Assembly (NCBI GenBank): GCA_937927875.1
Contig: CALEYV010000037.1
Span: 21,221-85,220 of the forward strand
Source of the DNA: an uncultured Actinomycetes bacterium
GTDB taxonomy: Bacteria; Actinomycetota; Acidimicrobiia; IMCC26256; PALSA-555
Reading direction: 5' to 3'
DNA: 64,000 bases
The notes under the pieces were generated by a model that ran no database searches, was not told the DNA's origin, and saw only the letters and a program-made list of their open reading frames with translations. Position numbers and translations under genes: made by a program. Positions 6,349 through 62,831 of this stretch are shown here, piece after piece; position 1 is the stretch's first letter; every line of letters starts with the position of its first letter.

Positions 6349-6470
6349 GTCCGCTGCGGTAGGCGCCCGCGAGCCAGACTTGCTCGCCACGAGACCTCCG
6401 CTCCGCCCAGGGGACGCCGCGTCACACTTGGGGGTGGGACGCGCCGACCGCCGGCCAAGCGCGGCAACGG

Positions 6471-6541: not shown

Positions 6542-6633
6542 GCGGCGCAGGACGCTACCAAAGCAGCCTGGCGGTCCGATCGGTGGACACCGGACCGCTA
6601 CCGCCCGAGCTGCTGCGACCCGAAGCCGTCCCC

Positions 6634-7419: not shown

Positions 7420-7431
7420 CGGCCCGGCCGG

Positions 7432-29756: not shown

Positions 29757-29832
29757 TGGTGGCCGGGGCCGGCGTCGATCCGGCGACCCCGCGCTTTTCA
29801 GGCGCGTGCTCTGCCAACTGAGCTACCCGGCC
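29757..29832 (-). tRNA. tRNA-Phe (anticodon GAA), CCA encoded
   Basis: The reverse complement is GGCCGGGTAGCTCAGTTGGCAGAGCACGCGCCTGAAAAGCGCGGGGTCGCCGGATCGACGCCGGCCCCGGCCACCA. All four stems pair and the anticodon loop is CTGAAAA. The T-loop is ATCGACG, which has A rather than T at position 54. Confidence 0.9.
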
Positions 29833-29862
29833 GTGCCGACGCCGGCGGGCCGACGTCGGCGG

Positions 29863-29937
29863 CGGTCCTGACGGGATTTGAACCCGCGGCCTCCGCCTTG
29901 ACAGGGCGGCGTGCACTCCAAACTGCACCACAGGACC
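29863..29937 (-). tRNA. tRNA-Asp (anticodon GTC)
   Basis: The reverse complement is GGTCCTGTGGTGCAGTTTGGAGTGCACGCCGCCCTGTCAAGGCGGAGGCCGCGGGTTCAAATCCCGTCAGGACCG. The anticodon loop is CTGTCAA. Confidence 0.9.
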
Positions 29938-29965
29938 AAAGGGGGTGGCGGGCCCACGCCGCCCG

Positions 29966-30038
29966 TGCCCCCAGGGGAATTCGAATCCCCGTTACCGCCT
30001 TGAAAGGGCGGCGTCCTGGGCCACTAGACGATGGGGGC
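29966..30038 (-). tRNA. tRNA-Glu (anticodon TTC)
   Basis: The reverse complement is GCCCCCATCGTCTAGTGGCCCAGGACGCCGCCCTTTCAAGGCGGTAACGGGGATTCGAATTCCCCTGGGGGCA. The anticodon loop is CTTTCAA. Confidence 0.9.
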
Positions 30039-30231
30039 TCGACTCCTCCAGAAGCGACCGCGAACTGTAGCCTTCGCGGACTGGCCGGGGATGAGCGCGT
30101 CGGACGCGACGCGCGCTACCGCGCGCAACCGCGAGTGGCTTCTCGCTCGCGCGACGGACCGTCAGTACGCTGGCCGGCGCACGAGCGCACGAGCCCGCGC
30201 TTGCACGTACGTCGCGCTCCGTCCCAGCCGA

Positions 30232-30304
30232 GGGTCGCTAGCTCAACTGGCAGAGCAACGGGCTTTTAACCCGGTGGTTCAGGGTTCGAGTCCCTGGCGG
30301 CCCA
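30232..30304 (+). tRNA. tRNA-Lys (anticodon TTT)
   Basis: GGGTCGCTAGCTCAACTGGCAGAGCAACGGGCTTTTAACCCGGTGGTTCAGGGTTCGAGTCCCTGGCGGCCCA. The anticodon loop is CTTTTAA. There is one A-G mismatch at the top of the anticodon stem and one G-U pair in the acceptor stem. Confidence 0.88.
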
Positions 30305-30429: not shown

Positions 30430-30912
30430 GTGCTCGTCATCTCGACCGGTGATTTCCTCTGGTACGTCGACCAGGCACTCGACGGCATGGTCGCGGCCGT
30501 GCGCGAGCTCGGGGACGAGCGGGCGAGCACGCGTCCGGACCTGCCGGGCGCCAACTCGCCGTACGCGATCCTCACCCATTGTCTCGGGGTGATGGAGTTC
30601 TGGGGCGGCGCGGTGATCGCGGGGCGGCGCGTCACTCGCGACCGCGACGCCGAGTTCCGGGCTAAGGGTCGCGTCGCCCACCTCGTGCAGCGGGTGGGCG
30701 ACGCTCGTCGCCGGCTCGAGGCTGACCTCGCGTCGCTCGAAGCCTCGGCGCCGATCCGGGCCCGCGTCCTGCCCGAGGACATGGACACCCCGATGGGTCG
30801 GAGCCAGGGCGGCGCGCTCGTGCATCTTTACGAGGAGCTCGCCCAGCACCTCGGCCAGGTCGAGCTGACCCGCGACGTGCTCGTCGCGGCGTCAGCGCCG
30901 GGCGGCGTCTGA
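30430..30912 (+). CDS. DinB-family (DinB_2 / mycothiol-dependent enzyme N-domain-like) protein
   Basis: GTG 30430 follows AAGGAG. The four-helix pattern includes [15 protein letters not shown] and ..[18 protein letters not shown], giving the spaced His residues typical of DinB folds. Confidence 0.7.
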
Positions 30913-30927
30913 GCCCGCGCGGGGTCG

Positions 30928-31578
30928 TCAGTCGGCGGCGGCCAGCCCAGTGGGGCAGGCGACGCCGGTGCCGCCGAGCCCGCAGTACCCGGACGGGTTC
31001 TTGGCCAGGTACTGCTGGTGGTACTCCTCGGCGTAGAAGAACTCGCCCGCCTTCGAGACCTCGGTCGTGATCTCGCCGTGCCCGGCCTCCCGCAGCGCCG
31101 CCTGGTACCGGTCACGCGACGCCTCGGCCTCCGCCCGCTGGGCGTCGTCGGCGTAGAAGATCGCCGAGCGGTACTGGGTCCCGACGTCGTTGCCCTGCCG
31201 CATCCCCTGCGTCGGGTCGTGGTGCTCCCAGAACGTCTGCAGCAGCCCGTTGAACGAGATGACCCGGGGGTCGAAGACGACCAGGACCGCCTCCGCGTGG
31301 CCGGTGCGACCGGAGCACACCTCTTCGTAGGTCGGGTTCGGCGTGAAGCCGCCGGCGTAGCCGACCGCGGTCGTGTACACGCCGGTCAGCTGCCAGAAAT
31401 CCTTCTCGGCGCCCCAGAAGCAGCCCAGCGCGAACTGGGCGCACACCAGCCCCTCCGGGAACGGGGGCTTCAGGGGCGTCCCGAGCACGAAGTGGCGCTC
31501 GGGGACCGGCATCGGCTCGGCCCGGCCCGGCAGGGCCCGGTCCGGCTCGACCATCTTGGTGTGGGCGCCGAAGATCAT
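30928..31578 (-). CDS. msrA: peptide-methionine (S)-S-oxide reductase
   Basis: ATG at 31578 is preceded by GGAGG. The active site [11 protein letters not shown] and [13 protein letters not shown] are present. The longer 257-aa track ORF start is rejected. Confidence 0.92.
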
Positions 31579-31811
31579 CGCGTTCCTCCGTCCTCGGGAG
31601 CCCCCCGACGTTACGGCGCCGACGACGCGGTTTTCCGCCCGCGTCGCCGGCCGTTCACGCCCTCGTCGCTCGGGCGCTACCCGGGCCGGGCAGGATCGCA
31701 AGTACCAGCGCGGCGCCCGAAGCGCGGCCGGTTGTCTCCCCCGTACCGGCCGCCCGGGCGTCGCCTCGGCTTCGGCCCCGTGCGCAGCTCGCCGGGGCGT
31801 CGCGGGGCGTC

Positions 31812-35569: not shown

Positions 35570-36375
35570 GCGACGTCGTGCTCGTCGACGTCGCCGAGCG
35601 CGTCGCCACCATCACCCTGAACCGGCCCGAGGTCCGCAACGCCATCAACGGCGACCTCAGCGTGGCGCTCGCCCGCGCCGTCGACGAGGCGGAGGCGGAC
35701 GACGGCGTCGACGTCCTGATCCTGACCGGCGCCGACCCCGCCTTCTGCGCCGGCGCCGACCTGCGCGAGGTGGCGGGCGACGCCGGCGCCCCCGCCATCC
35801 TCGACCCCGACCAGCGGTACGAGCGCGACGACGTCGGCCGGTTCGCGTTCCGGGGCCCGTTCCCGCCCCGCACCAAGCTGCTCATCGGCGCCATCAACGG
35901 GCCCGCCATCACCGGCGGCTTCGAGCTGGCGCTGAACTGCGACCTGCTCGTCGCCTCGGAGCGGGCCCGCTTCGCCGACACCCACGCCCGGGTCGGGGTG
36001 ATGCCGGGCTGGGGCCTCACCGTCCTCCTCCCGGAGGCGGTCGGCCTGCGCCGGGCCCGCGAGCTCAGCGCGACCGGCAACTTCCTTGCCGCCGAGCAGG
36101 CCCTGGCCTGGGGGCTGGTGAACCACGTCGTCCCCCACGACCAGCTGCTGCCCTGCGCGCGCGAGCTCGCGCTGGCGGCCGTGCACAACGACCAGGTCGC
36201 GGTGCGCCGCGTGCTCCGCACCTACCACGAGCTGGCCGGCGCCATCTACGACCCGGGCTGGGAGAACGAGGACCGGGTGAACCGCGAGTGGTGGCTCGGC
36301 ACGTTCGACGCCGCCGAGCTCGGGCGCCGCCGGGCCGGGGTCATCGAGCGGGGCCGGGGCCAGGTCGGCTCGTGA
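35566..36375 (+). CDS. enoyl-CoA hydratase/isomerase (crotonase) family protein
   Basis: GTGA overlap with the previous stop. ITLNRPEVRNAI, LTGADPAFCAGADL and INGPAITGGFELAL are present. Confidence 0.88.
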   Translation: MSDVVLVDVAERVATITLNRPEVRNAINGDLSVALARAVDEAEADDGVDVLILTGADPAFCAGADLREVAGDAGAPAILDPDQRYERDDVGRFAFRGPFPPRTKLLIGAINGPAITGGFELALNCDLLVASERARFADTHARVGVMPGWGLTVLLPEAVGLRRARELSATGNFLAAEQALAWGLVNHVVPHDQLLPCARELALAAVHNDQVAVRRVLRTYHELAGAIYDPGWENEDRVNREWWLGTFDAAELGRRRAGVIERGRGQVGS

Positions 36376-38693
36376 CCGCGCCGACCGCGGGCCGGTTCGT
36401 CGGGCAGGCGGTGCGCCGCCGGGAGGACCCGCGGCTGCTCACCGGCCAGGGCGTCTTCGTCGACGACGTCGTCGTGCCGGGCATGCTGCACGCCGCCTTC
36501 GTGCGTAGCGACCTGGCCCGGGCCCGGATCACCGGTCTCGACGTCGAGGCGGCCCGGGCCCTCCCCGGCGTCGCGGCGGTTCTGACCGCGGCCGACCTGA
36601 ACCCGATCGTCGGCTCGATGCAGCCGACGATGTTCCAGGGTGACCGCCCGCCGGCGCCCTGCGCGCCGCTGCGGCCGCTCGCCGACGGCGACGTGCGCTT
36701 CGTCGGCGACCCGATCGCGCTCGTGATCGCCGAGAGCCGCTACGTCGCCGAGGACGCGGCCGAGCTCGTCGTCGTCGACTACGAGCCGCTCCCCCCGGTC
36801 GTCGACGCCGAGGCCGCCGCGACCGCGACCGACGTCGTGCACCCCGAGCTCGGCTCCAACGTCGCGCTCCACGCGGCGTCGCCGCCGGATCCCGAGCTCG
36901 ACGCGGCCTTCGCCGCCGCCGCCCACGTGGTGACCGAGACCCTCGTGCAGCACCGCCACACCAACGTCCCGATGGAGACCCGGGGCGTCGTCGCCACCTC
37001 GAAGTCGGCCACCGGCGAGCTCGACGTGTGGATCTCCACCCAGAACCCGCACGAGGTCCGCCAGACCTGCGCCCGCGCCCTCGCGATCCCCGAGCACCTC
37101 GTGCGCGTCCGCATGGGCGACGTCGGCGGCGGGTTCGGCCAGAAGTACTTCACGCCCCGGGACGAGCTCACCGTGATCGCGGCCGCGCACCTGCTCGGGC
37201 GGTCGGTGAAGTGGATCGAGGACCGCCGCGAGAACCTCATCGCCGCCAACCACGCCCGCGCCGACCGGGTGACGGTCCGCATGGCCCTCGACGACGACGG
37301 CCGGATCCTCGCCGTGCACCTCGACCACCTCGAGGACTGCGGCGCGTACCCGGTCGGCGGGACGGGCGGCATCGGCCCGTTCATGGCCATGCTGTTCCCG
37401 GGCCCGTACCGGATGCCGAAGCTCGGCTTCTCGAGCACCGCGGTGTGGACCAACACCTGCGGCCGCGGCGCCTACCGGGGCCCGTGGATGATGGAGACCG
37501 TCGCCCGCGAGGAGATGCTCGACCTGGCCGCCCGCGCCGTCGGCCTCGACCCGCTCGAGCTCCGCCGCCGCAACTGCGTGCACGGCGACGAGCTGCCGTT
37601 CAGCACCGCGGGCGGGCTCGTCCTCGACCACGTCACCCCGGCCGAGACGCTCGAGCAGGCCGCCGGCCTCATCGACTACCCGGGCTTCCGGGCCGAGCAG
37701 GGCCGCGCCACCGGCGAGGGCCGCCTGCTCGGGGTCGGGATCGGCCTCTACGTCGAGCCGACCAGCATGTCCTCGGGCAGCCTCGGCGCCGAGACGGCGA
37801 CGGTGCGGGTGCAGCCGACCGGCACCGTGACCGTCCACCTCGGCACCGGGTCGCACGGCCAGAGCATCGAGACGACGATGGCGCAGGTCGTGGCCGAGCA
37901 CCTCGGCGTCGACCTCGACGCCGTGACCGTGGTCCAGGGCGACACCGACAGCGCCCCCTTCGGCGGCGGCACCGGCGGCAGCCGCACCGCGGTCGTCGCC
38001 GGCGGCGCGGCGCGCGACGCCGCCCTCGTCGTGAGCGACAAGGCCGCCAAGATCGCGGCGCACCTGCTCGAGGCCGCGCCGGAGGACCTCGAGGCCGAGG
38101 GCGGGCGGATCGCCGTCCGCGGCACGCCGACCCGGGGCGTCACCCTGGCCGAGGTGGCGCGCGTGGCGCTGAACGCGCCGGGCGAGCTGCCCCCCGACCT
38201 CGGCCCCGGCCTCGAGGCGACGGTCAGCTACCAGGCGCCGCCGATCACGTGGTCGAACGCCTGCCACGCCTGCACGGTCGAGGTCGACCCCGCGACCGGC
38301 GTGGTGGAGATTCTCCGCTACGTCGTCAGCGAGGACTGCGGCCTGATGATCAACCCGATGGTCGTCGAGGGCCAGATCGCGGGCGGCGTCGTGCAGGGCA
38401 TCGGCGGCGTGCTCTACGAGCACCTCGTCTACGACGAGGACGGCAACCCGCTCACGACCACCTTCCTCGACTACCTCCTTCCCACCGCGACCGAGGTGCC
38501 GACCATCGAGTACGGGCACATCGAGACCCGCTCGCCGACGCCGGGCGGGCACAAGGGCATGGGGGAGGGTGGCGCCATCGGCGCCCCGCCGTGCGTGTTC
38601 AACGCGGTCGCCGACGCGCTGGCGGTGCGCGGCAGGCGCGTCACCGACCAGCCGCTGTCGCCGGCCCGGGTCCTGGACGCGCTGGCCGGCTGA
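36372..38693 (+). CDS. xanthine dehydrogenase/CO dehydrogenase family molybdopterin-binding large subunit
   Basis: GTGA overlap with the previous stop. RREDPRLLTGQG, GDVGGGFGQKY, GAYRGP and the C-terminal GMGEGGAIGAP are present. No FAD or 2Fe-2S subunit gene is adjacent. Confidence 0.9.
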   Translation: MTAPTAGRFVGQAVRRREDPRLLTGQGVFVDDVVVPGMLHAAFVRSDLARARITGLDVEAARALPGVAAVLTAADLNPIVGSMQPTMFQGDRPPAPCAPLRPLADGDVRFVGDPIALVIAESRYVAEDAAELVVVDYEPLPPVVDAEAAATATDVVHPELGSNVALHAASPPDPELDAAFAAAAHVVTETLVQHRHTNVPMETRGVVATSKSATGELDVWISTQNPHEVRQTCARALAIPEHLVRVRMGDVGGGFGQKYFTPRDELTVIAAAHLLGRSVKWIEDRRENLIAANHARADRVTVRMALDDDGRILAVHLDHLEDCGAYPVGGTGGIGPFMAMLFPGPYRMPKLGFSSTAVWTNTCGRGAYRGPWMMETVAREEMLDLAARAVGLDPLELRRRNCVHGDELPFSTAGGLVLDHVTPAETLEQAAGLIDYPGFRAEQGRATGEGRLLGVGIGLYVEPTSMSSGSLGAETATVRVQPTGTVTVHLGTGSHGQSIETTMAQVVAEHLGVDLDAVTVVQGDTDSAPFGGGTGGSRTAVVAGGAARDAALVVSDKAAKIAAHLLEAAPEDLEAEGGRIAVRGTPTRGVTLAEVARVALNAPGELPPDLGPGLEATVSYQAPPITWSNACHACTVEVDPATGVVEILRYVVSEDCGLMINPMVVEGQIAGGVVQGIGGVLYEHLVYDEDGNPLTTTFLDYLLPTATEVPTIEYGHIETRSPTPGGHKGMGEGGAIGAPPCVFNAVADALAVRGRRVTDQPLSPARVLDALAG

Positions 38694-38702
38694 CCCGCCC
38701 GG

Positions 38703-39377
38703 TCAGCTCCGGTCGGCCGGGCGCACCCGGTAGGCGCAGCGGGCGTCGCCGGCCATGAGGTGCTGGGTCCGCTCGACCGCGACGTCGGGCCCGAGGACGG
38801 CGCGGAACAGCTCGAGCTCGCCCCGGCACAGCCCGGTGCACGCGGTGGCGGCGCTGCACACCGGGCAGTGGTGCTCGACGAGCAGCAGCGCGTCGCCGTC
38901 GCGCTGGGTTTCGGCCATGTAGCCCTCGGCGCTGCGCTGGCGGGCCAGCGCGGCCAGCCGCGATCGAAGCGATCCCGCGTCGGGCGCCGGCACGACGGCC
39001 CGGTACGCGGCGAGCTGGCGGGCGGTGCGGGCCTCGACGACGGCGTCGAGGCCGTCGTCGCCGACCGCCTCCCGGATCGCGGCGAGCAGCTCGACGGTCA
39101 GGTCGCCGTGGCGGTCGGGGAACAGCTCGGCGGCCAGCGCGGTGACCGCCCACTCGTCCGGCGGGCGGCCCCGGCCTCCGCCGGCCCGGCCCCGGCGCTC
39201 CACGAGCCCGTGCGACGCCAGGCCCTCGAGGTGCTGGCGGACGGCGGCCTCGGTGAGCCCGAGCCCGGCCGCCAGCTCGGGGACGGTCGCGGCGTCGACG
39301 CGCTTCAGCCGCTCCAGCACGCGGCGCTTGGCGTCGGTGAGGCCTGCGGACACGCCCCCGACCCTAGCGACTTCCAC
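38703..39377 (-). CDS. ArsR-type winged-helix regulator with C-terminal Cys cluster (SufR-like)
   Basis: An N-terminal wHTH (VLERLKRVDAATVPELAAGLGLTEAAVRQHLEGLASHGLVERR) and a C-terminal EHHCPVCSAATACTGLCRGELELF plus a further Cys (DARCAY), resembling the Fe-S-sensing SufR family. Confidence 0.7.
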   Translation of the reverse strand: MEVARVGGVSAGLTDAKRRVLERLKRVDAATVPELAAGLGLTEAAVRQHLEGLASHGLVERRGRAGGGRGRPPDEWAVTALAAELFPDRHGDLTVELLAAIREAVGDDGLDAVVEARTARQLAAYRAVVPAPDAGSLRSRLAALARQRSAEGYMAETQRDGDALLLVEHHCPVCSAATACTGLCRGELELFRAVLGPDVAVERTQHLMAGDARCAYRVRPADRS

Positions 39378-39387
39378 AAGTCAGGTC

Positions 39388-39416
39388 TTGACGAACTGCC
39401 GCCCAGAGGTGATTAT
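39388..39416 (+). promoter_or_regulatory. candidate promoter of the Rieske-fusion gene
   Basis: TTGACG, a 17-nt spacer and GATTAT in the only AT-richer patch of the 47-bp divergent intergenic region. The ATG at 39425 would leave little or no leader. Confidence 0.35.
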
Positions 39417-39424
39417 GGCAAGCG

Positions 39425-41164
39425 ATGGCTTCCGAAAATGGGGGACGGGTTCGAGCCGGGTCGGCGGCCACGCTCGAGGCCGAGGGCCGGCTGCTCACCA
39501 AGCTCGGCAGCCTGCCGGTGTTGGTCGTCTGGCACGAGGGCCGCGTCTACGCCCTCGAGGACCGCTGTCCGCATATGGGCTTCCCGCTGCACCGGGGGAC
39601 CTGCGAGGACGGGCTGCTCACCTGCCACTGGCACCACGCCCGCTTCGACCTGGCCTCGGGCTGCACCCTCGACCGCTGGGCCGACGACACGCGTGCCTTC
39701 GACGTCGAGATCGCCGACGGCGACGTGTGGGTGTCCGCGCGCGACGGCGGCGACAACGTCGAGCACCTCCACCAGCGCCTCCGGGAGGGACTCGAGGACG
39801 GCACCTCGCTCGTGATCGCCAAGGCCGTGCTCGGGCTGGTGGACGCGGGCGTGGACCCGGCCGACCTCGTGCGCACCGGCCTCGAGTTCGGGGCCCGCAA
39901 CCGCGCCGGCGGCTGGGGCACCGGGCTCACCGTCCTCGTCGCCATGGCGAACGTGCTGCCGCACCTGGACGCCGACGACCGTGCCGCCGCCCTCATCCAC
40001 GCCCTCGTGTTCGTCTCGAACGACACCCGCGGGAACGCGCCCCGCTTCGACGTGCCGCCCCTGCTGACGAGCACGGTGTCGCCCGACCGGCTGGCCGAGT
40101 GGTACCGGCGCTTCGTCGACACTCGTTCCGCCGGCGCGGCCGAGCGGGTGCTCGCCACCGCGCTGGCCGGCGACGTCGCCGACGCCGACGTCGAGGCGAT
40201 GCTGTTCGCCGCCGTCACCGACCACGTCTTCGTCGACGGCGGCCACACCCTCGACTTCACGAACAAGGCGGTCGAGGTCCTGCGCCAGGTCGGCCCGGCG
40301 TCGCGGGCGCTGGTGCTGCCGACCCTCGTCGCTCAGACCGCGGTCGCCGGCCGCAGCGAGGAAGGCAGCGACTGGCGGTACCCCGACAACCTGGTCGCGC
40401 TGCTGCGGTCCGCGACCGACGCCTTGCCCGACGCGCTCGAGGAGGGCCGGGCCCGCCGGGGCGAGTTCCAGGACGTGGCGGGGCTCGGCGACCAGCTGCT
40501 CGGCGAGGACCCGGCCGCGATCGTGGACGCGTTGCTCGACGCCGTACGCGCCGGCGCGACCGACGAGCAGGTCGGCCGGGCGGTGGCGCTGGCCGCCTCC
40601 CGCCGCGTCGTGCGCTTCCACACCCAGAACGACTTCGGCGACTGGGACACCGTCCACCACACCTTCACGGCCGACAACGCGCTGCACCAGGCGCTGCTGC
40701 GGGCGCCGACCGTCGAGCTGCTGCGGGGCGCGTTCCACGGGGCGCTGCGCGTCTACCTGGACCGCTTCCTCAACGTGCCGCCGGCCCGGTTGCCGACCGC
40801 CGAGACGGGATCGCTCGAGGCGCTCGTCGCCTGCTTCGACGTGCAGGGCGACGTCGACGTGGCCGGGAACGAGGCCTACGGGTACCTGCGGTCCGGCGGG
40901 TCGCGGGCCTCGCTCGTCGCCGCCCTCGGGCGCCGGATGCTCGACGAGGACGTCGGCTTCCACACCTATCAGCACTACGAGGCCAGCGTCCGGCAGGCCT
41001 TCGCCTGGCCAGAGGGGTCCGAGGAGGCAGCGCTGATCCTGACCGGCTGCGCTCGCTACCTCGCCGCCCACGCGCCGACGCGGCGCGAGCTGCCGACCGT
41101 GATCACGATCGCGTCGCGGCTCCGCCGGGGCGAGCACCTCTTCGAGGAGGCGGTGGCGAGCTGA
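39425..41164 (+). CDS. Rieske [2Fe-2S] domain fused to a ~460-aa uncharacterised alpha-helical domain
   Basis: The N-terminal ~100 aa has CPHMGFPLHRG..LTCHWHHARF, the CxH...CxxH Rieske ligands. I recognise no motif in the rest of the protein. Confidence 0.75.
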   Translation: MASENGGRVRAGSAATLEAEGRLLTKLGSLPVLVVWHEGRVYALEDRCPHMGFPLHRGTCEDGLLTCHWHHARFDLASGCTLDRWADDTRAFDVEIADGDVWVSARDGGDNVEHLHQRLREGLEDGTSLVIAKAVLGLVDAGVDPADLVRTGLEFGARNRAGGWGTGLTVLVAMANVLPHLDADDRAAALIHALVFVSNDTRGNAPRFDVPPLLTSTVSPDRLAEWYRRFVDTRSAGAAERVLATALAGDVADADVEAMLFAAVTDHVFVDGGHTLDFTNKAVEVLRQVGPASRALVLPTLVAQTAVAGRSEEGSDWRYPDNLVALLRSATDALPDALEEGRARRGEFQDVAGLGDQLLGEDPAAIVDALLDAVRAGATDEQVGRAVALAASRRVVRFHTQNDFGDWDTVHHTFTADNALHQALLRAPTVELLRGAFHGALRVYLDRFLNVPPARLPTAETGSLEALVACFDVQGDVDVAGNEAYGYLRSGGSRASLVAALGRRMLDEDVGFHTYQHYEASVRQAFAWPEGSEEAALILTGCARYLAAHAPTRRELPTVITIASRLRRGEHLFEEAVAS

Positions 41165-42281
41165 GCCACGGGGCGAGATCCCGGCGCATCACCTCGAGGT
41201 AGCGGTCCTCCAGCTCGGCCAGCACGAACCGGCGCCCGAGCGCCGCCGCCGCCCGGCCCACCGTGCCGACGCCGGCGAAGGGGTCGAGCACGACGTCGTC
41301 CTCGAAGGACCAGTAGCGGATGACGCGCTCGGCGAGCGCGACCGGGAACACGGCCGGGTGGTCGGCCCGGCTGCTCGGCGCGATCCGCCAGACGTTGGTC
41401 CGCTCGTAGTCGTCGTCGATCCGGGACCGGTCCACCGCGTCGGGGTCGTGGTGGGCGCGGATGTTCCAGTCGAGCAGCCGGTCGGTGCGGGCCCGGTACA
41501 CGAGCACGTACTCGGTGACCGGCACCGCCTTGTACTGCAGCGGGCGGCGGTCGGCGGCGAACCGACGGCCCCGTCCGGTGGCCCACCCCGCGCCCTCCGG
41601 CTTCTCCCAGATGATGTCGTCGACGAAGTCGAAGTCCTCCTCGACGAGGATGCGGTGCAGGTCGAACGGCACCGCCAGCCGCCGCGACGACTCGGACCGG
41701 CTGGCCCGGCGCAGCAGCACCGGCGCCGTGTTCAGCACGAGGAAGCGCCCCTCGGCCAGCAGCCGGCGGCACTGCCGTAGCACCCGGCGCATTTTGTCGA
41801 GGTAGGCGCCGTAGTCGACGAAGTCGCCGGCGTCGGGGCGGGCGTTGAAGTACGGCGGCGACGTGAACACGAGGTCGACGGCGCCGTCGGGGAGCTCGGC
41901 GAGCGTGCGCTCGGCGTCGCCGGCGAGCACGCAGCTCGAGAGCGGCGACCGGGTGATGACCGGCGCGCGTGACCGGACCGGGCGGCGCTCGGCGGGGCGG
42001 GCGAGCCGGGCCCGCACCGTCGCGACGTCGGTCGTGCGCGCCGCGTCGACCTCGCCCGACCGGGCGTCGAGCACCACCTCGCCGACCCGCACCGTCGACG
42101 AGGCGGCCAGCAGCGGCACCCGCCACACGTGGTAGCGGTCGTCGACCTCCGGCAGCCCGAAGGAGAGCGACCGCCGCAGCCGCCAGGCCCGCGCCTGGTC
42201 GGCGGCCCGGGCCCGGGCCTCCTCGACCGTGCGGACCTCGTAGGCGCGCTCCTCGCTGACCAGCTGCGCCCGTTGCGCCAC
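41103..42281 (-). CDS. beta-class N4/N6 DNA methyltransferase with ~120-aa N-terminal extension
   Basis: GTG start at 42281. Motif IV DLVFTSPPY precedes motif I DPFAGVGTVGRAA, the permuted order of the N6_N4_Mtase family. No endonuclease-like gene is adjacent. Confidence 0.85.
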   Translation of the reverse strand: MAQRAQLVSEERAYEVRTVEEARARAADQARAWRLRRSLSFGLPEVDDRYHVWRVPLLAASSTVRVGEVVLDARSGEVDAARTTDVATVRARLARPAERRPVRSRAPVITRSPLSSCVLAGDAERTLAELPDGAVDLVFTSPPYFNARPDAGDFVDYGAYLDKMRRVLRQCRRLLAEGRFLVLNTAPVLLRRASRSESSRRLAVPFDLHRILVEEDFDFVDDIIWEKPEGAGWATGRGRRFAADRRPLQYKAVPVTEYVLVYRARTDRLLDWNIRAHHDPDAVDRSRIDDDYERTNVWRIAPSSRADHPAVFPVALAERVIRYWSFEDDVVLDPFAGVGTVGRAAAALGRRFVLAELEDRYLEVMRRDLAPWLSSPPPPRRGARPGGAATRS

Positions 42282-50594: not shown

Positions 50595-51683
50595 TCAGCC
50601 CGCGGACACCTCGACCGGCTGACGGGCCGGCGCCGGCCGACGGGCCGGCGGGGGCGTGACCCGAAGCCGCAGCGCGCCGACGACCGCGATCCCGGTCCCG
50701 AGCCCGAGCACGGTGGCGACCTCGAGGCGGGCGAAGACGTGCGGCAGCGTCGTCGGCAGCTGGGATCGGTAGAGCTCGGTGACGTCGGCCAGGCCGCCGG
50801 CCAGGGCGAGGAACAGCCCCGCCAGCAGCAGCAGCGGCGCGGTGGCGCGGACACCGCGGCGGACGAGCCACGTCAGCGCGAGGACGCCCAGCGCGATCCC
50901 GCCGAGCGCGTACGCGCTGGCGGCGAGCTTCGTCGTGCCCGCCACCGTCGTCCCCTCGTACGAGCCGAGCACGTGCGCGACCTCACCGACGATCATCGCC
51001 ACCAGGGCCGTGACCAGCACCGGGCGGGCGACCCGGGTGCGCGCCAGGACGACCAGGAGGATGGCGAGCGCCGCCGCGACGGCGAACCAGCCCCAGGGCG
51101 CGGGCCCCGGCACCCACACCACCTCGCCGCGCACCGTGATCGGCACCCCGTCCTGGACCAGCGTGACCGTCCATCGCTGCACGAGGTGCCGCGAGCTCGG
51201 GTCGCGCTGCACCTGGGGCGGGTTGATGGTCCCGAGCCAGTGCGCGCGGTGGTCGTGCCACCGGACGATCGGCCCGTCACCGATGCGACGCCACTCGGGC
51301 GCCGCCCGGGGGTCGGCCGAGCGGGGCACCGGCACGTTGCCGGTCCGGGTCCGGTTCAGGTACACGGCGGGGGAGCGGACGTTCTCGAACACCCCCGCCG
51401 GCCCCACCCGCAGGTAGGGCTCGCGGTCGTACCCGAGGACGGTCAGGTCGCGGCCGGTGCGGTTCTCCAGCTCGAGCTTGTTGCCGAGATCCGCCGCCCT
51501 CACCGACAGCCCGGCAACCCGGGGGGTGACGGTGAGGACCCGAGTCGAGAAGTTGCTGGGCTGGATCCCGGCGACGCCGTGCGCGCCAGCCGGCTCGGCC
51601 GCCACGACGACGGCACCGACGCCGATCGCGACCGCGAGGGCGGCCTGCCCGATGCGCGTCCCGGTTACGCGCAGCGCCGGCAC
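50595..51683 (-). CDS. exported His-rich domain + C-terminal polytopic membrane protein, unknown family
   Basis: GTG 51683 overlaps the last 19 nt of the Fur-family gene. The signal peptide MPALRVTGTRIGQAALAVAIGVGAVVVAAEPAGA is followed by HG.., then a ~190-aa beta-rich domain containing WHDHRAHW, then about 5 TM helices. Only the distal 362 codons of the 779-aa track ORF are used. Confidence 0.6.
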   Translation of the reverse strand: MPALRVTGTRIGQAALAVAIGVGAVVVAAEPAGAHGVAGIQPSNFSTRVLTVTPRVAGLSVRAADLGNKLELENRTGRDLTVLGYDREPYLRVGPAGVFENVRSPAVYLNRTRTGNVPVPRSADPRAAPEWRRIGDGPIVRWHDHRAHWLGTINPPQVQRDPSSRHLVQRWTVTLVQDGVPITVRGEVVWVPGPAPWGWFAVAAALAILLVVLARTRVARPVLVTALVAMIVGEVAHVLGSYEGTTVAGTTKLAASAYALGGIALGVLALTWLVRRGVRATAPLLLLAGLFLALAGGLADVTELYRSQLPTTLPHVFARLEVATVLGLGTGIAVVGALRLRVTPPPARRPAPARQPVEVSAG

Positions 51684-52099
51684 AGTCCGACCAGGTCGAC
51701 CCGGTGGGTCTGGGTCCGGAAGCCGGTGGTGGCGGCGATCTGGTCGACGGCGTTCCGCAGCGACTGTTCGAGGTGCGCGTTCGGCGGGACGTCCTCGACG
51801 GTGCCGCACGACGAGCAGATGAGGTGGTGGTGATGCCCGACCAGGTCCTCGGCGAGCTCGAAGCGAGCGAACTCGTCGTTCGTGACGATGCGGTGCACGA
51901 CGCCGGCCTGCTCGAGGATGACGAGGTTGCGGTACACGCTGCTCTGCGCGAGCCCGTTCCCGGCCTCGAGCACCTCCGGGATGGTGAGCGGCCGGGGCGA
52001 CGCGACCAGGACGTCGACGATCGCCTCGCGGTTCGGCGTGAGACGCTGCTGCACTCGTCGGAGTCGCGAGGCGACCAGCTCGCGAAGCTCGTCGCTCAC
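51665..52099 (-). CDS. Fur-family metalloregulator (Fur/Zur/Nur-type)
   Basis: A wHTH (LTPNREAIVDVLVAS..LTIPEVL) plus HHHHLICSSCG and GLCRRCA, i.e. two CxxC pairs and a His cluster. GTG 52099 is preferred; an alternative GTG lies at 52147. Confidence 0.85.
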   Translation of the reverse strand: MSDELRELVASRLRRVQQRLTPNREAIVDVLVASPRPLTIPEVLEAGNGLAQSSVYRNLVILEQAGVVHRIVTNDEFARFELAEDLVGHHHHLICSSCGTVEDVPPNAHLEQSLRNAVDQIAATTGFRTQTHRVDLVGLCRRCA

Positions 52100-52114
52100 G
52101 GCGGCGAGTGTACC

Positions 52115-52135
52115 GTCGAGTTCGATGAATCCGAC
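52115..52135. promoter_or_regulatory. imperfect 21-bp palindrome between the Fur-family gene and the divergent gene (candidate operator)
   Basis: In GTCGAGTTCGATGAATCCGAC, 7 of 10 arm positions are self-complementary (GTCG..TTC-n3-GAA..CGAC). It spans the ATG of the + strand gene. Confidence 0.3.
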
Positions 52136-52892
52136 CGACGCGTTCACGCGACTCGTGCGGCAACCGGAGCCCGAGCTCGCGCTCGACGAGGCGGCGCTGC
52201 TCATCGCGGCTCACGACCACGAGGTCGACATCGCCGCCAACCTGGCCGCGCTCGACGAGCTGGCCCGGGACGCGCCCGACGACGCCGAGGGGATGGCGCG
52301 CCTCCTGTTCGTCGAGCGGGGCTTCGCCGGGAACGAGGTCGACTACGGCGACCCGCACAACTCGTACCTCGACTCGGTGCTGCGCCGCCGGCTCGGGCTG
52401 CCGATCACGCTCAGCGTCCTGCTGCTGGAGGTGGCGCGCCGGCGGGGCGTCGTCCTCCACGGGGTCGGGATGCCGGGGCACTTCCTGGTCGGCGATGGCG
52501 ACGGCCGGTACTACGACCCGTTCCACGCCGGCGCGACGCTGGACGAGCAGGGGTGCCGCGCCATCAGCGAGCGGCTGCGGCCCGGCGCGCCGTGGCATCG
52601 CTCGTACCTCGAGCCGGTCGGGCCCCGCGCCATCCTCGTGCGGATGCTCGCCAACCTCGTGCACACGCTCGTCGAGCGCTCGCCGGCGGACGCGGTGTGG
52701 GCGCTCCGCCTGCGCCTCGCCGTGCCCGGCGTGGCAGCGGGGGAGCGCCGGGAGACCGCGGCGCTGCTCGGGACCCTGGGCCGGTTCGGGGAGGCCGCGT
52801 CGGTGCTCGACGAGGTCGCCGACGACCTGGACGAGGCGGGCGCGGCCCGCGCGCGCGAGGACGCGGCCCGACTGCGCGCCCGCGCGAACTGA
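52125..52892 (+). CDS. transglutaminase-like/TPR protein (SirB1/YchA family)
   Basis: GFAGNEVDYGDPHNSYLDSVLRRRLGLPITLSVLLLEVARRRGV..GVGMPGHFLV..YYDPFHAG matches the SirB1 N-domain, followed by a TPR-like tail. Confidence 0.7.
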   Translation: MNPTDAFTRLVRQPEPELALDEAALLIAAHDHEVDIAANLAALDELARDAPDDAEGMARLLFVERGFAGNEVDYGDPHNSYLDSVLRRRLGLPITLSVLLLEVARRRGVVLHGVGMPGHFLVGDGDGRYYDPFHAGATLDEQGCRAISERLRPGAPWHRSYLEPVGPRAILVRMLANLVHTLVERSPADAVWALRLRLAVPGVAAGERRETAALLGTLGRFGEAASVLDEVADDLDEAGAARAREDAARLRARAN

Positions 52893-53952: not shown

Positions 53953-54570
53953 TCAGCCGAGGTCGAGGTCGATGGTGCGGGCCTTGTCGAAGCGCGACCC
54001 GACGTCGTCCCAGTCGACGAGGTGCCAGAACGCCTCGACCCACTCGGCCTTCCGGTTCTCGTACTGCAGGTAGTAGGCGTGCTCCCACATGTCGAGCACG
54101 AGCAGCGGCGGGCCGCCCTGCCCGACGTTGCCCTGGTGGTCGTAGACCTGCTCGACGATCAGGCGCTGGCCGAGCGGCTCCCAGGACAGGGCGGCCCAGC
54201 CCGAGCCCTGCACGTTGTTCGCCGCCTCGACGAGTTGGGACCGGAACTGGTCGAACGAGCCGAGATGCTCGTCGATGGCGGCCGCCAGGTCGCCCACCGG
54301 CTTGTCGCCGCCGGCCGGGGTCAGGTTCTTCCAGAACAGCGAGTGCAGGATGTGCCCGGAGAGGTGGAAGGCCAGGTTCTTCTCCAGCAGGTTGATCGAC
54401 CCGAAGTCGCCCGTCGCCCGGGCTTCCTGGAGGCGCTCAAGCACCTTGTTCGCGCCGTCGACATAAGCCTTGTGATGCTTGTCGTGATGCAGCTCGAGGA
54501 TCCGCCCGCTCAGGTGCGGCTCGAGCGCCGAATAGTCGTACCCGAGTTCCGGCAAGGCGTAGAAGGCCAT
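53953..54570 (-). CDS. sodA: Fe/Mn superoxide dismutase
   Basis: [22 protein letters not shown] and [11 protein letters not shown] are present. Confidence 0.95.
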
Positions 54571-54674
54571 GGCGGGCTCCTTTCGTCAGCAGCGACGGTA
54601 GCGGCGACCCGCTGCTCCCTACCCACCGACCGGCGGCGCGCTAACGCGGCGCCGCAAGCGGTACCCTCGGTCCG

Positions 54675-55193
54675 GTGAGCGCCCCGCACCGACGCCGCCT
54701 CGACGTCGTGCTCGGCGAGGGCTACCTCGACGGCCTCGACGCCAAGACCATCGACGAGGTCCGCGCGATGCACGAGGAGTGCCTCGAGGTCGAGACCGAG
54801 ATCTCCTACGTGCGACGCCTCGCGCAGGCCCGGATCGACATCGTGTCGGCCGAGCTGGACCGCCGGTCGACCGGCCGCTCGGTCGAGGACCTGGTGGCGA
54901 TGCTCCCCGAGATCCTCGCCGACGACCAGCCCCGCACCGATCCCGCCCACAGCCGGCTGCCGCGCCACCTGGCGCCGTCACCGACGATCGCGTGGCGGCG
55001 GGGACTCGAGCACCTCATCACCGACGCCACGCTCGTGAACCTGCCGACGCTGGGCGACGACGAGCTGCGTGAAACCCTCGAGCAGCTCGGCACCCTCGAG
55101 CGCGAGATGTCGACCCGGCGGCGGGCCCTGCACGGGGTCATCGACGGCATCGAGAGCAACCTCGCGACCCGGCATCGCGTCGACCACGTCTGA
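54675..55193 (+). CDS. RsiG-like anti-sigma factor candidate (c-di-GMP-binding signature)
   Basis: A helical 172-aa protein. ETEISYVRRLAQARID matches E-x3-S-x2-R-x3-Q-x3-D exactly (aa 40-55). EREMSTRRRALHGVID matches it except for H in place of Q (aa 142-157). Confidence 0.6.
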   Translation: MSAPHRRRLDVVLGEGYLDGLDAKTIDEVRAMHEECLEVETEISYVRRLAQARIDIVSAELDRRSTGRSVEDLVAMLPEILADDQPRTDPAHSRLPRHLAPSPTIAWRRGLEHLITDATLVNLPTLGDDELRETLEQLGTLEREMSTRRRALHGVIDGIESNLATRHRVDHV

Positions 55194-62044: not shown

Positions 62045-62725
62045 TCACGCCGCGACCCGGGTGCCCCCGGCGACCCGGAACCCGGCGTAGATGACGACGA
62101 TGCCGGCGGCCAGGGTCGCCGCGAACGCCTGGTCGTGCCCGACGAAGCCCTGCACCAGCCCGCCGCTCGACAGCACCAGCGTCCCGGCCGCGATGAGCAC
62201 GTTGGCGCCCGCCCTCGCCGCGTGCCCGGCGCGGGTGCGGTCCCGGGCGTAGCGGACGGCGGAGACGACGGCGCCGACGAGGATCACGGTCGCGCCGACG
62301 CCGCTGCCGATCCCGGCCAGCGCCCGCGGGAAGGTCCCGAACACCCGGCCGGCGACCGGGATGGCGGTCCCCGCCACCGGCCGGAGGGGGGCGGTCAGCA
62401 GCACGCCGCCGGCCAGGCCGGAGAAGAACACCACGAACCACTGGGCCCGACGTCCGGCCGCCGGGCCGAGCAGCAGGTCGACCGTGCCGAGGGCCAGCCA
62501 CGGCACGTCGAGGACCGCGCCGAGCAGGAAGAACAGCCGATAGGTGCCGCGGTCCCAGCCGTTCGAGCTGCCGAGGGCCAGCGCGGTCGCCGCGCCGCCG
62601 AACAGGGCGAGGGCGACCGTCCAGTCCCACAGCTCCCGCCGCCGCCGCTGGGTGGCGCGGGCCAGGGTCGACTCGGCGAAGAGGAAGGCCACCGCGGCGG
62701 CCACGAACGCCAGCCCCGGGACCAT
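62045..62725 (-). CDS. integral membrane protein, unknown function
   Basis: About 7 hydrophobic helices follow MVPGLAFVAAAVAFLF. ATG 62725 is preferred to the 279-aa track start, which would run into the rex start region. Confidence 0.5.
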   Translation of the reverse strand: MVPGLAFVAAAVAFLFAESTLARATQRRRRELWDWTVALALFGGAATALALGSSNGWDRGTYRLFFLLGAVLDVPWLALGTVDLLLGPAAGRRAQWFVVFFSGLAGGVLLTAPLRPVAGTAIPVAGRVFGTFPRALAGIGSGVGATVILVGAVVSAVRYARDRTRAGHAARAGANVLIAAGTLVLSSGGLVQGFVGHDQAFAATLAAGIVVIYAGFRVAGGTRVAA

Positions 62726-62765
62726 CTCGGGCGCGATCGTAGGCCCGAGCCCCCGCCCCGAGACG

Positions 62766-62783
62766 CTTGTGACCGCGTGCACA
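62766..62783. promoter_or_regulatory. Rex operator (ROP)-like inverted repeat
   Basis: TTGTGAC-CGCG-TGCACAA compared with the remembered consensus TTGTGAA-N4-TTCACAA gives 12 of 14 matches. It lies 49 nt upstream of the rex GTG, in the divergent intergenic region. Confidence 0.55.
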
Positions 62784-62831
62784 AGCGCGGCTAGCGTTGA
62801 TCGGAGCGCAGGCGCGCCGGCCCCGGGCGCG

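Follow-up and report, generated by a model that had tools for sequence, protein, structure and literature searches.

Within the stretch of DNA analysed here (the window, 64 kb, 74% GC), a gene for a SufR-like regulator and a gene for a protein that joins a Rieske [2Fe-2S] domain to a long helical domain stand divergently, back to back (Table 1). The first-pass annotation had described this arrangement with promoter boxes between the genes, and both ORFs and the boxes are indeed present; GC content by codon position in the two ORFs follows the pattern expected of real genes (GC3 0.96). The first possible start of the regulator is a GTG at 39377, which would yield a protein of 224 aa (38703-39377, minus strand), and residue numbers of the regulator below refer to this form. 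In public gene calls the start is placed at GTG 39353, with the exact 216-aa protein present as P0271, and relatives align only from residue 9 of the longer form onwards. The intergenic gap had been put at 47 bp, which holds for the longest ORF, but 71 bp is more probable because the public calls start at 39353 and the relatives align only from residue 9. The pair directly follows a partner-less molybdenum hydroxylase, as had been noted: the CoxL-like large subunit gene ends at 38693, beside the regulator. The earlier remark that no suf genes are nearby also holds, with zero suf-related Pfam families among the 34 ORFs scanned in the window. A search for a riboswitch or small RNA between the two genes with Rfam at gathering thresholds was negative; its only matches in the window were tRNAs at other places.

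Table 1. Genes, protein domains and predicted regulatory sites at the locus (window coordinates; regulator residues in 224-aa numbering)
Feature	Position	Strand	Details and basis
Regulator, SufR-like (COG2345)	38703..39353	-	216 aa; ORF, Pfam, NCBIfam and public gene calls
Predicted Fe-S cluster-binding segment of regulator: C171, C174, C180, C184, E187 ... C214	38736..38867	-	Spacing and conservation
RGRP AT-hook in wing of regulator wHTH, residues 69-72	39162..39173	-	Conservation; counterpart of 75-RGRP-78 in Mtb SufR
Probable -10 box (TAGGGT) of the regulator's own promoter	39361..39366	-	Read from sequence; 7 nt upstream of GTG 39353
Operator O1 (predicted), palindrome CAAGTCAGGTCTTG	39377..39390	.	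Right arm overlaps -35 box of Rieske gene promoter
Rieske gene promoter TTGACG-17-GATTAT	39388..39416	+	Consensus scan; ends 8 nt before ATG
Operator O2 (predicted), imperfect palindrome CAAGCGATGGCTTC	39419..39432	.	Covers predicted transcription start and ATG of Rieske gene
Rieske-helical fusion protein	39425..41164	+	579 aa; ORF; full-length homologues abundant; AlphaFold2
Rieske [2Fe-2S] domain, residues 8-105	39446..39739	+	PF00355; invariant ligands; Foldseek
Uncharacterised all-alpha domain, residues 108-579	39746..41161	+	AlphaFold2 model; ~25 near-invariant polar residues

The regulator is matched over its full length by the NCBIfam model of SufR (TIGR02702, E 9.5e-36, profile positions 2-207 of 208), with a score of 123.4 bits that lies under the equivalog cutoff of 178.8 bits; because the model was built on cyanobacterial SufR, actinobacterial SufR may also score under this cutoff. 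Pfam places HTH_20 and MarR_2 at the N-terminus, and the ArsR/SmtB metalloregulator model NF033788 is not reached (31.2 bits against a cutoff of 55, over residues 17-63 only). The motifs by which the Mtb SufR cryo-EM preprint defines COG2345, namely RxH, an RGRP AT-hook and C-X12-C-X2-E...C, are all found, and together with the full-length profile match they uphold the designation "SufR-like". The first is R47-Q-H49 in helix 3 of the wHTH; the second is R69-G-R71-P72, the Mtb equivalent of which is a DNA minor-groove hook (Mtb SufR cryo-EM preprint). The R and H of the former and the R-G-R of the latter are conserved at 98-100% across 120 related clusters. The Cys-rich segment that had been claimed for the regulator is present as HHCPVCSAATACTGLCRGE, and its Cys and Glu are conserved at 95-100% in the same clusters. 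The ligand spacing is C171-X12-C184-X2-E187-X26-C214, the final Cys standing 27 residues after the Glu; the Mtb SufR counterparts, C179/C192/E195/C220 in C-X12-C-X2-E-X24-C, were matched by spacing and not by direct alignment to Rv1460. Two extra conserved Cys, C174 and C180, extend the segment to CPxC-X5-C-X3-C, and this CPxC motif could reflect a different cofactor or a thiol switch. Of 326 COG2345 representatives, all except five have three Cys at the ligand positions, and [4Fe-4S] is bound by SufR and ArnR, the two members that have been characterised (Mtb SufR cryo-EM preprint). Motifs alone cannot prove cluster binding, as the same preprint states, and we infer an Fe-S cluster in this regulator subfamily while regarding it as unproven.

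Between the two genes, the promoter TTGACG-17-GATTAT proposed in the first-pass annotation proved to be the sole promoter-like site in 39250-39550 (0.0 expected in shuffles), and TTGACG-17- followed by GAGTAT, GATCAT or GATTAT is kept in L002, L004 and L009. The hexamer TAGGGT or TAAGGT recurs at the place of the regulator's probable -10 box in L082, L083, L084 and L090, and the position of this box suggests that the regulator mRNA is probably leaderless. The two predicted operators lie 42 bp apart, centre to centre. Apart from O1, the 64 kb window contains no exact CAAG-N6-CTTG (0.14 expected), and the motif of O1 is kept at the same position in related loci. A second site of this type occurs 42-44 bp from the first in ten related loci (L002, L004, L016, L060, L081-L084, L090 and L093), with an exact match in L004 and L016. 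The regulator of L093 faces a VOC gene instead of the Rieske gene. Exact sites number 15 in 6.5 kb of regulator-upstream DNA versus 23 in the whole 1.05 Mb examined, these 15 included, which corresponds to 2.3 versus 0.022 per kb, or an enrichment of ~100-fold. When one mismatch at most is allowed, 27 of 29 loci have a site. Other non-suf genes are faced by sister regulators with the same operator, and in L003 and L008 an exact operator stands at -41 to -47 of a Rieske gene that has no regulator nearby. The A/T tracts beside O1 are weak in the window; Mtb SufR depends on such tracts flanking its operator (Mtb SufR cryo-EM preprint).

SufR of Mtb (Rv1460), Streptomyces and cyanobacteria is among the closest known relatives of this system. 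The regulator has in common with these proteins the family COG2345, the R-x-H recognition helix, the AT-hook, the ligand set, a palindromic operator on a promoter, probable autoregulation and, as in Mtb, a probable leaderless target. It differs in lying away from suf genes, in its score below the equivalog cutoff, in the two additional invariant Cys, and in CAAG/CTTG half-sites that come in two copies with weak A/T flanks here. Its predicted target is the Rieske protein, whereas that of SufR is the Fe-S assembly machinery. The regulator is accordingly a SufR-family paralogue and not SufR itself.

The first-pass annotation had named in advance a lack of joint conservation as evidence against the pair; the pair instead recurs within its clade. 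The regulator is divergent and adjacent to the Rieske gene in 13 of 80 genome loci, whose Rieske proteins are 55-76% identical, and in the reciprocal test the Rieske gene adjoins the regulator in 8 of ~14 testable metagenome loci. All pair-bearing loci, which are independent and number more than 20, belong to close actinobacterial relatives, and the pair is confined to this one clade. About 57 of the 64 loci that lack the regulator also lack the operator. Since most Rieske-helical genes thus have neither, the regulator says little about the general function of the family. The ORFs around the 80 genome loci were clustered, neighbouring genes were searched with Pfam in Bacillales, cyanobacteria, a haloarchaeon, Dehalococcoidia, Rubrobacteraceae and Acidimicrobiia, and annotated contexts were examined in Paraburkholderia, Priestia, Halorussus and Microvirga; these surveys disclosed no recurrent neighbour of Rieske-helical genes apart from the regulator. 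Neither the clustering, the Pfam searches nor the window showed oxygenase or reductase genes near the Rieske-helical gene. An alpha/beta-hydrolase neighbour in Dehalococcoidia, Microvirga and Priestia was apparent only, the proteins being unrelated.

The N-terminal part of the fusion protein is a Rieske domain by several measures. PF00355 matches residues 22-79 with 47.4 bits against a cutoff of 20.3, and the CPH..CHWH signature reported earlier is confirmed as C48-P-H50 and C67-H-W-H70, with C48, H50, C67 and H70 invariant in 57 homologues. The full-length AlphaFold2 model has a pLDDT of 94.8 and a pTM of 0.92. Foldseek relates its Rieske domain to Rieske ferredoxins such as CarAc and BphA3 (target TM-scores 0.82-0.87, rmsd 1.9-2.6 A), which places it with the electron-carrier type, and the PDB sequence match to CarAc has an E-value of 7.8e-07. 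The ligand loops lack a second Cys pair, which we take to mark the low-potential ferredoxin type. The fusion protein is cytoplasmic. Its N-terminal 105 residues have fold and ligand motif in common with CarAc, BphA3/BphF and T4moC; CarAc-type ferredoxins, however, are stand-alone proteins of ~110 aa in oxygenase operons, while the Rieske domain here is always tied to a 470-residue helical partner. The alpha subunits of Rieske non-heme iron oxygenases are alike in having an N-terminal Rieske domain followed by a larger C-terminal domain, and the idea of electron flow from the Rieske domain to a second domain applies to both. The oxygenase catalytic domain is a beta-rich helix-grip with a 2-His-1-carboxylate iron site, in contrast to the all-helical second domain of the fusion protein. 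Pfam and NCBIfam found no ring-hydroxylating or PaO-type catalytic domain in the fusion, and Foldseek aligns oxygenases over the Rieske part only.

The C-terminal ~460 aa had been described as unplaceable, and wider searches leave them so. No Pfam or NCBIfam model matches the helical domain of the window protein, no PDB entry matches it by sequence (phmmer) or profile, and Foldseek against the PDB, with full-length and domain-only models, gave no helical-domain match at E <= 0.001. A match to a well-known enzyme family, which the first-pass annotation had named as evidence against its view, thus did not appear in Pfam, NCBIfam or the PDB. Modelled alone, residues 108-579 give a pLDDT of 96.2 and a pTM of 0.95 with 23 helices. 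Across 57 homologues R394, N402, D406, W407, P452, E508, Q516 and R544 are invariant, and H274, D277, N280, K281, E284, E312 and E313, together with H412, R447, N450, D509, H513 and E519, are among the near-invariant ones; the conserved polar residues (His, Asp/Glu, Arg, Asn) lie mostly at helix ends. Such strong conservation, in a domain of 470 residues, is at least as compatible with an enzyme as with a sensor. A resemblance to the C-terminal helical domain of MgsA was considered and set aside: the subdomain concerned, of ~90-120 residues, is too small and the likeness too weak to assign a function (Pfam match at E <= 10 in 8 of 38 members, best E 8e-4; Foldseek to 3pvs_C, rmsd 2.1 over 91 columns, E 1.9). 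An internal duplication was likewise discarded, segment-versus-segment hhalign probabilities being <= 3.6%. Rv3818, considered as a mycobacterial homologue, was dropped because its architecture differs; we take it to be the muramic-acid hydroxylase NamH, and the papers that mention it concern peptidoglycan modification.

Full-length Rieske-helical homologues of 570-600 aa are abundant. The Rieske-plus-helical architecture is obligate in 1513 representative clusters, among which the helical domain was never found without a Rieske domain, the shorter database entries being 5'-truncated fragments. The family occurs in Actinomycetota, Chloroflexota, Bacillota, Cyanobacteria, Pseudomonadota, Planctomycetes-like genomes and haloarchaea, with ~45% identity of the helical domain between bacteria and archaea, and its gene is often plasmid-borne, some of the plasmids coming from cultured strains. 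The unit is fused to an ECF sigma factor in 14 clusters (53-80% identity) and to a class III cyclase in two sequences (56% identical over full length), and the core motifs of the unit are kept in both types of fusion. The sigma fusion P0144 has Glu in place of H274. Neighbours of the sigma-fusion genes have no common theme. The unit occupies the place that C-terminal regulatory domains have in other ECF sigma factors, and N-terminal sensors in other class III cyclases; the window protein, unlike these fusions, has no output domain.

We lean slightly towards reading the pair as a two-gene, stress-responsive redox module that is switched on by derepression. The regulator dimer with its Fe-S cluster would most likely bind the two CAAG-N6-CTTG palindromes, whose separation equals four helical turns. 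With O1 between the two divergent promoters and over the -35 box of the Rieske gene, and O2 over the transcription start and start codon of that gene, the Rieske gene and the regulator's own gene would both be repressed. If the regulator behaves like Mtb SufR and C. glutamicum ArnR, damage to the cluster or its loss would take the regulator off the DNA and turn the Rieske gene on. Holo-SufR binds and represses, and apo-, NO- or H2O2-treated SufR does not (PMC8371249); ArnR is a COG2345 [4Fe-4S] repressor of the non-suf genes narKGHJI and hmp (Mtb SufR cryo-EM preprint) and hence a precedent for members that control redox or NO-related targets. ArnR differs in its targets, has ~19% identity to SufR-type proteins and resembles the regulator at the family level only. 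Candidate signals for the regulator are NO, peroxide or oxygen, and Fe-S cluster shortage. In the target protein, the conserved polar residues of the helical domain may form a pocket, a putative ligand or metal site that would exchange electrons with the Rieske cluster. Elsewhere the unit appears to serve ECF sigma factors and class III cyclases as their input, so that a read-out of its redox or ligand state is conceivable; it would thus be redox-reactive and sense or process a small molecule. We infer in this way the direction of regulation, the signal and the role of the helical domain.

The Rieske-helical protein might instead be a catalytic oxidoreductase of a new type, in which the Rieske domain feeds a mono- or di-iron centre held by His, Glu and Asp of the helical domain and which detoxifies or repairs products of nitrosative or oxidative stress. 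The regulatory part would be unchanged, and an Fe-S-sensing repressor would control the enzyme because the enzyme handles such products. The ~25 near-invariant polar residues, including H274, H412, H513, E312, E313, D406, E508, D509 and E519, speak for this view, as do the identity across bacteria and archaea, the electron-carrier type of Rieske domain and the organisation as a single self-sufficient gene, often on plasmids. The hosts, which by loci and plasmid records include cyanobacteria, haloarchaea, Bacillales and soil Actinomycetota and Proteobacteria, are presumably mainly aerobic, and tight repression through two operators recalls stress enzymes such as hmp under ArnR. Foldseek and profile searches, however, matched no known metal-enzyme fold, no reductase or partner gene is conserved, H274 is replaced in P0144, and repeated joining to sigma and cyclase outputs would sooner be expected of an input domain; we regard a catalytic function as possible, though unlikely. 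Another reading makes the Rieske-helical protein the missing electron-transfer partner of the hydroxylase next door, given the adjacency in the window and the absence of a CoxS or CoxM gene beside it. The first-pass annotation had called any such functional link pure inference, and the link is not supported because synteny does not extend past the closest relatives: L002, L083 and L084 are the only loci with the hydroxylase near the pair, and they are loci whose Rieske proteins are 74-76% identical and where ~1.1 kb of intervening DNA leaves room for another gene. Beyond these relatives the pair persists without it, the family occurs in dozens of unrelated contexts, and the two genes lie on opposite sides of the regulator, not co-oriented as in an operon, which leaves this partnership scarcely credible.

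Two further alternatives concern the regulator. Its five conserved Cys, CPxC included, could form a thiol-disulfide switch or a site for zinc or another metal, so that it would sense without an Fe-S cluster. C174 and C180 are absent from Mtb SufR, and the N-terminal domain is weakly ArsR-metalloregulator-like. The Cys, Cys, Glu and Cys that correspond to the four ligands of Mtb SufR are nevertheless invariant, with matched spacing, the metalloregulator model stays far under its cutoff, and the three-Cys pattern prevails in COG2345, where SufR and ArnR both carry [4Fe-4S], which makes cluster-free sensing improbable. We consider it very improbable that the regulator is the organism's real SufR, acting on a distant suf operon and placed beside the Rieske gene incidentally. 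SufR is its best curated family match, and only a 64-kb window of the genome is visible, but the score falls under the equivalog cutoff, and it is exactly at the Rieske gene promoter that the predicted palindromic operators lie, where they are conserved together with that gene. The recurrence of the pair in independent loci and the other non-suf genes faced by sister regulators also argue against it. SufR genes that have been characterised are, moreover, located within or next to the suf genes under their control, Rv1460 being the first gene of the Mtb suf operon (PMC6034842).

COG2345 has only recently been recognised as a large Fe-S transcription factor family, with targets known for two kinds, SufR and ArnR, and the locus would be a third computationally well-defined case, made up of a regulator, two predicted operators, a promoter and one target gene. 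Of the two halves, the target holds more interest, as an obligate Rieske-helical family of ~1500 representative clusters. The literature searched contained no description of this protein family, of a Rieske-containing input domain or of Rieske domains as signal-reading input; the recurrent use of the unit as input to sigma factors and cyclases suggests that a redox or small-molecule signal is read via the Rieske cluster. Our broadest proposal, which we advance tentatively and a little short of even confidence, is that the helical domain may be a new fold and may make up, with its Rieske partner, a redox-reactive module of a class not recognised before, which many bacteria and archaea have either stand-alone or as the input of ECF sigma factors and adenylate/guanylate cyclases. 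In one actinobacterial clade a non-suf, SufR-like [4Fe-4S] repressor would be dedicated to this module, and theirs would be the first regulon of that kind to be predicted with a defined operator.

By its sequence, the regulator encoded divergently from the Rieske gene is a SufR-like member of the COG2345 family. Pfam recognizes only its N-terminal winged helix-turn-helix (HTH_20, MarR_2), and the NCBIfam SufR model spans the whole protein (profile positions 2-207 of 208, E 9.5e-36). A score of 123 bits, under the equivalog cutoff of 178.8, and the finding of no Suf family among the 34 ORFs scanned across the 64 kb window argue that the regulator is not SufR itself. The PDB sequence set yielded no related structure.

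Along with a cryo-EM structure of Mtb SufR, a 2025 preprint defines the traits of COG2345 proteins at large. These include an R-R-H motif in helix 3 and an RGRP AT-hook in the wing, and the [4Fe-4S] ligands of Mtb SufR are C179, C192, E195 and C220. Many species have several COG2345 paralogues, and outside SufR, targets are known only for ArnR of C. glutamicum (10.64898/2025.12.26.696629). The regulator carries R47-Q-H49, R69-G-R-P72 and C171-X12-C184-X2-E187-X26-C214, the last of these matched to the Mtb SufR ligands by motif spacing rather than by direct alignment. R47/H49, the AT-hook and the predicted cluster ligands are 98-100% conserved when the 120 closest database clusters (59-100% identity) are aligned. 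Two further cysteines, C174 (95%) and C180 (100%), are conserved in the same clusters and give the regulator a CPxC-X5-C-X3-C-X2-E motif that Mtb SufR lacks. The full-length model alignment and these motifs uphold the first-pass annotation of the regulator as SufR-like, and its remark that no suf genes lie nearby holds for the 34 window ORFs scanned.

The regulator and Rieske ORFs lie back to back in DNA of ~74% G+C, and both show the GC distribution over codon positions that real genes have (GC3 0.96). Between them, TTGACG-17-GATTAT is the sole promoter-like match in 39250-39550 and did not arise in 50 shuffles; its -10 box ends 8 nt 5' of the Rieske ATG, so that the transcript is predicted to be leaderless or nearly so. 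Public gene calls give the regulator as a 216-aa form with a GTG start at 39353 (P0271), and the alignment of relatives begins only at residue 9. Taken with the position of a TAGGGT -10 box, this indicates that the regulator mRNA is probably leaderless too. The two ORFs, their divergent layout and the promoter are thus as first described, but the intergenic gap is probably 71 bp rather than 47 bp.

Positions of the genes, promoters and predicted operators, with the two sigma-fusion loci numbered in their own sequences
Feature	Positions	Strand	Remarks
CoxL-like molybdenum hydroxylase large subunit	36288-38693	+	best NCBIfam match CODH group
Regulator ORF	38703-39377	-	224 aa from first possible start
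Regulator -10 box TAGGGT	39366-39361	-	7 nt upstream of GTG 39353; recurs in related loci
Predicted operator O1, CAAGTCAGGTCTTG	39377-39390		exact CAAG-N6-CTTG; right arm forms first bases of Rieske gene -35 box
Rieske gene promoter TTGACG-17-GATTAT	39388-39416	+	consensus match in intergenic DNA
Predicted operator O2, CAAGCGATGGCTTC	39419-39432		one mismatch; across predicted transcription start and ATG of Rieske gene
Rieske-helical ORF	39425-41164	+	579 aa
Orphan N6/N4 DNA methyltransferase	41103-42281	-	PF01555, E 5.6e-40
Sigma-fusion gene, L098	6001-8523
Sigma-fusion gene, L099	6001-8328

The palindrome CAAG-N6-CTTG was recognized on visual comparison of intergenic sequences from related loci and was then counted. 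O1 is its sole exact occurrence in the 64 kb window, where 0.14 would be expected by chance. In the 230 bp upstream of the regulator at each of 29 loci with a relative of it, 15 exact copies occur in 6.5 kb (2.3 per kb), as against 23 in 1.05 Mb overall, these 15 included (0.022 per kb). With one mismatch at most, the palindrome is present at 27 of the 29 loci, and paired sites, where a locus has two, are 42-44 bp apart, or four helical turns. Several relatives have a longer form, TTTCGCAAG-N6-CTTGACGAAA, which adds short A/T tracts of the type used by the SufR AT-hook; the flanks of the window's own operators are less rich in A/T than these extended sites.

The two divergent -10 boxes flank O1, and O2 lies on the Rieske transcription start; occupancy is therefore expected to block both promoters. 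Regulator bound at O1 and O2 would shut off the Rieske promoter as well as its own. In Mtb SufR the holo form binds and represses, and the apo, NO-treated and H2O2-treated forms do not (PMC8371249). We infer cluster binding, the signal and the direction of control for the present regulator, assuming by analogy that its holo form would repress and that cluster loss or damage would release the promoters.

A divergent, adjacent regulator homologue was found in 13 of the 80 best genome loci at which a Rieske-protein relative is encoded (L001, L002, L004-L007, L009, L016, L032, L033, L035, L036 and L060). All 13 belong to metagenome-assembled genomes of Acidimicrobiia/Actinomycetota, taxon labels being approximate since most related loci are metagenome-assembled, and their Rieske proteins share 55-76% identity with the window's. 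L027 has its regulator ~1.1 kb downstream instead. The reciprocal search, with the regulator as query, returned 17 metagenome loci, ~14 of them with enough upstream DNA to judge, and the Rieske gene was divergent and adjacent in 8 of these. The remaining judgeable loci keep the operator and place the regulator opposite other genes: a Pfam-confirmed glyoxalase/VOC gene in L093 (1979-2344), probably another VOC-type gene in L095, as its similar N-terminal sequence suggests, and in L092, L094 and L096 a conserved gene for which the N-terminal fragment gave no Pfam match. Such exchange of the opposite gene with retention of the operator implies a regulator subfamily with several alternative targets. 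At two further loci, L003 and L008, an exact CAAG-N6-CTTG stands at -46 / -47 of the Rieske-helical gene and no regulator gene was found nearby (6 kb on each side of L003; the 7.5 kb contig of L008), which suggests control in trans. Neither regulator nor operator was found at more distant Rieske-helical genes.

A functional link to the adjoining molybdenum hydroxylase, offered in the first-pass annotation as inference, is not favored by these comparisons. Only the closest relatives, L002, L083 and L084, have the hydroxylase large subunit gene near the pair, with ~1.1 kb of other DNA in between, and from gene order the proximity looks like ordinary local synteny. The hydroxylase itself scores under every NCBIfam equivalog cutoff (588 bits against 950 for the best, CODH group), and no small (2Fe-2S) or medium (FAD) subunit gene adjoins it; an enoyl-CoA hydratase-like and an amidohydrolase-like ORF lie upstream. 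On the other side, the methyltransferase gene converges on the Rieske gene with a 62-bp overlap of 3' ends. It has no evident restriction enzyme gene as a neighbor, and its synteny is confined to the closest relatives (L002, L060, L083, L084 and L090). Redox and metal-homeostasis genes elsewhere in the window (7432-9657(-), 30430-31701, 51665-52204(-), 53953-55193 and 62544-63509(+)) include those for a CCG/4Fe-4S oxidoreductase with a NarI-like part, a mycothiol S-transferase/DinB protein, MsrA, a Fur-family regulator, an Fe/Mn superoxide dismutase, an RsiG-like protein and a Rex-like regulator; no CAAG-N6-CTTG was found near them. Rfam gathering matches place a cluster of four tRNA genes at 29760-30304 and one further at 6471-6541.

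The Rieske domain of the target protein comprises residues 8-105 (Pfam, 47.4 bits), and its ligands C48, H50, C67 and H70 are invariant among 57 diverse members. Among solved structures it comes closest to Rieske ferredoxins of the electron-carrier kind such as CarAc, BphA3 and T4moC (CarAc sequence match E 7.8e-07; Foldseek target TM-scores 0.82-0.87 for ferredoxin-type structures). Assignment of the whole protein as a Rieske oxygenase or as a stand-alone Rieske ferredoxin was rejected on membership tests. The second ligand motif reads C-H-W-H-H (residues 67-71, 39623-39637), with H68 nearly invariant, W69 invariant and His the majority residue at position 71, an unusual density of His around a Rieske cluster. 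This motif may be part of the contact with the helical domain.

Residues 108-579 had no match in Pfam, NCBIfam or PDB sequences, profile search included, which bears out the early impression that this region could not be placed. AlphaFold2 gave models of very high confidence for the full-length protein (pLDDT 94.8, pTM 0.92) and for the helical domain alone (pLDDT 96.2, pTM 0.95), the latter with 23 helices. Foldseek of this domain against 350,542 PDB chains returned none at E <= 0.001, with query TM-scores <= 0.18, and no relative emerged from any library searched. The single faint signal is a subdomain of ~90-120 residues weakly like the C-terminal helical domain of MgsA/RarA (Pfam MgsA_C in 8 of 38 members, best E 8e-4; Foldseek match to 3pvs_C with rmsd 2.1 A over 91 columns, E 1.9). 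No internal repeat was found. Some 25 polar residues are invariant or nearly so among the 57 diverse members, the former including R394, N402, D406, W407, E508, Q516 and R544 and the latter H274, D277, N280, K281, E284, E312, E313, H412, R447, N450, D509, H513 and E519. Many of them fall at helix ends and inter-helix loops of the model, as would be expected for a predicted pocket. A second Fe-S cluster is unlikely, since the domain has no conserved Cys.

Searched alone against 1.84 billion representative proteins, the helical domain retrieved 1513 clusters at E <= 0.001 and 278 at E <= 1e-30. In nearly all of them an N-terminal region of ~110 residues precedes it, and the shorter entries are truncated fragments; the Rieske and helical domains thus form an obligate unit. 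Among its carriers are Acidimicrobiia, Actinomycetes, Rubrobacteraceae, Dehalococcoidia, Deinococcus, Bacillales, cyanobacteria and one haloarchaeon, and the window protein is ~45% identical to archaeal or Bacillales homologues. Cultured organisms carry copies on plasmids or chromids (Paraburkholderia, Sinorhizobium (pSymA), Microvirga, Priestia megaterium, Nostoc, Aulosira, Gloeothece, Halorussus and Haladaptatus), all annotated merely as "Rieske (2Fe-2S) protein", and literature searches found no paper describing the family. Outside the regulator clade no common gene neighborhood was found, and the contexts are unrelated to one another, which implies that the gene works alone. One Dehalococcoidia contig (CBDBDT010000002.1; L067 and L077) has two paralogous copies, each after an alpha/beta hydrolase gene; the hydrolases near the Microvirga and Priestia copies are unrelated to these, and the hydrolase was rejected as a shared neighbor. 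In Pseudalkalibacillus (L075, 2365-5474) a squalene-hopene cyclase gene and a DUF2515 gene precede the Rieske-helical gene, a context not seen elsewhere.

The most informative clue to function is domain fusion. In P0131 (734 aa) and L064 (741 aa; 6001-8226), which share 56% identity end to end, the helical domain is followed by a class III adenylate/guanylate cyclase domain. In 14 other clusters (P0144, P0391-P0403; 775-870 aa, 53-80% identity) an ECF sigma factor (regions 2 + 4) precedes a complete Rieske-helical unit across a linker of ~65 residues; the neighbors of one such gene, in L099, are typical of Planctomycetes (PSCyt2, PSD1, DUF1501). Both fusion types keep the Rieske ligands and most helical-domain motifs. 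A unit joined to two different signaling outputs usually has an input-domain role. The size and strong conservation of the unit would fit an enzyme equally well, and enzyme-like domains act as inputs in some sigma factors and cyclases. Fusion to sigma and cyclase outputs is more typical of an input domain, and we regard a specifically enzymatic protein as the less likely reading.

We lean, with modest confidence, towards the regulatory model and, with it, the Rieske-helical unit as a sensor or processor. The chemistry of the helical domain we infer: a small molecule would bind or react at its conserved pocket, coupled to the Rieske cluster, and the stand-alone form might be catalytic. There is also a considerable, though less than even, chance that the helical domain represents a new fold and belongs to a new class of modules, Rieske-coupled and serving for input or catalysis. 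The arrangement shares its logic with SufR-suf and ArnR-hmp, in which an Fe-S-sensing repressor acts on a leaderless stress gene, with an extra CPxC motif in the regulator and a new kind of target. The regulator is thus a new member of a recently defined family, within a module whose logic is known and whose target protein is unfamiliar.
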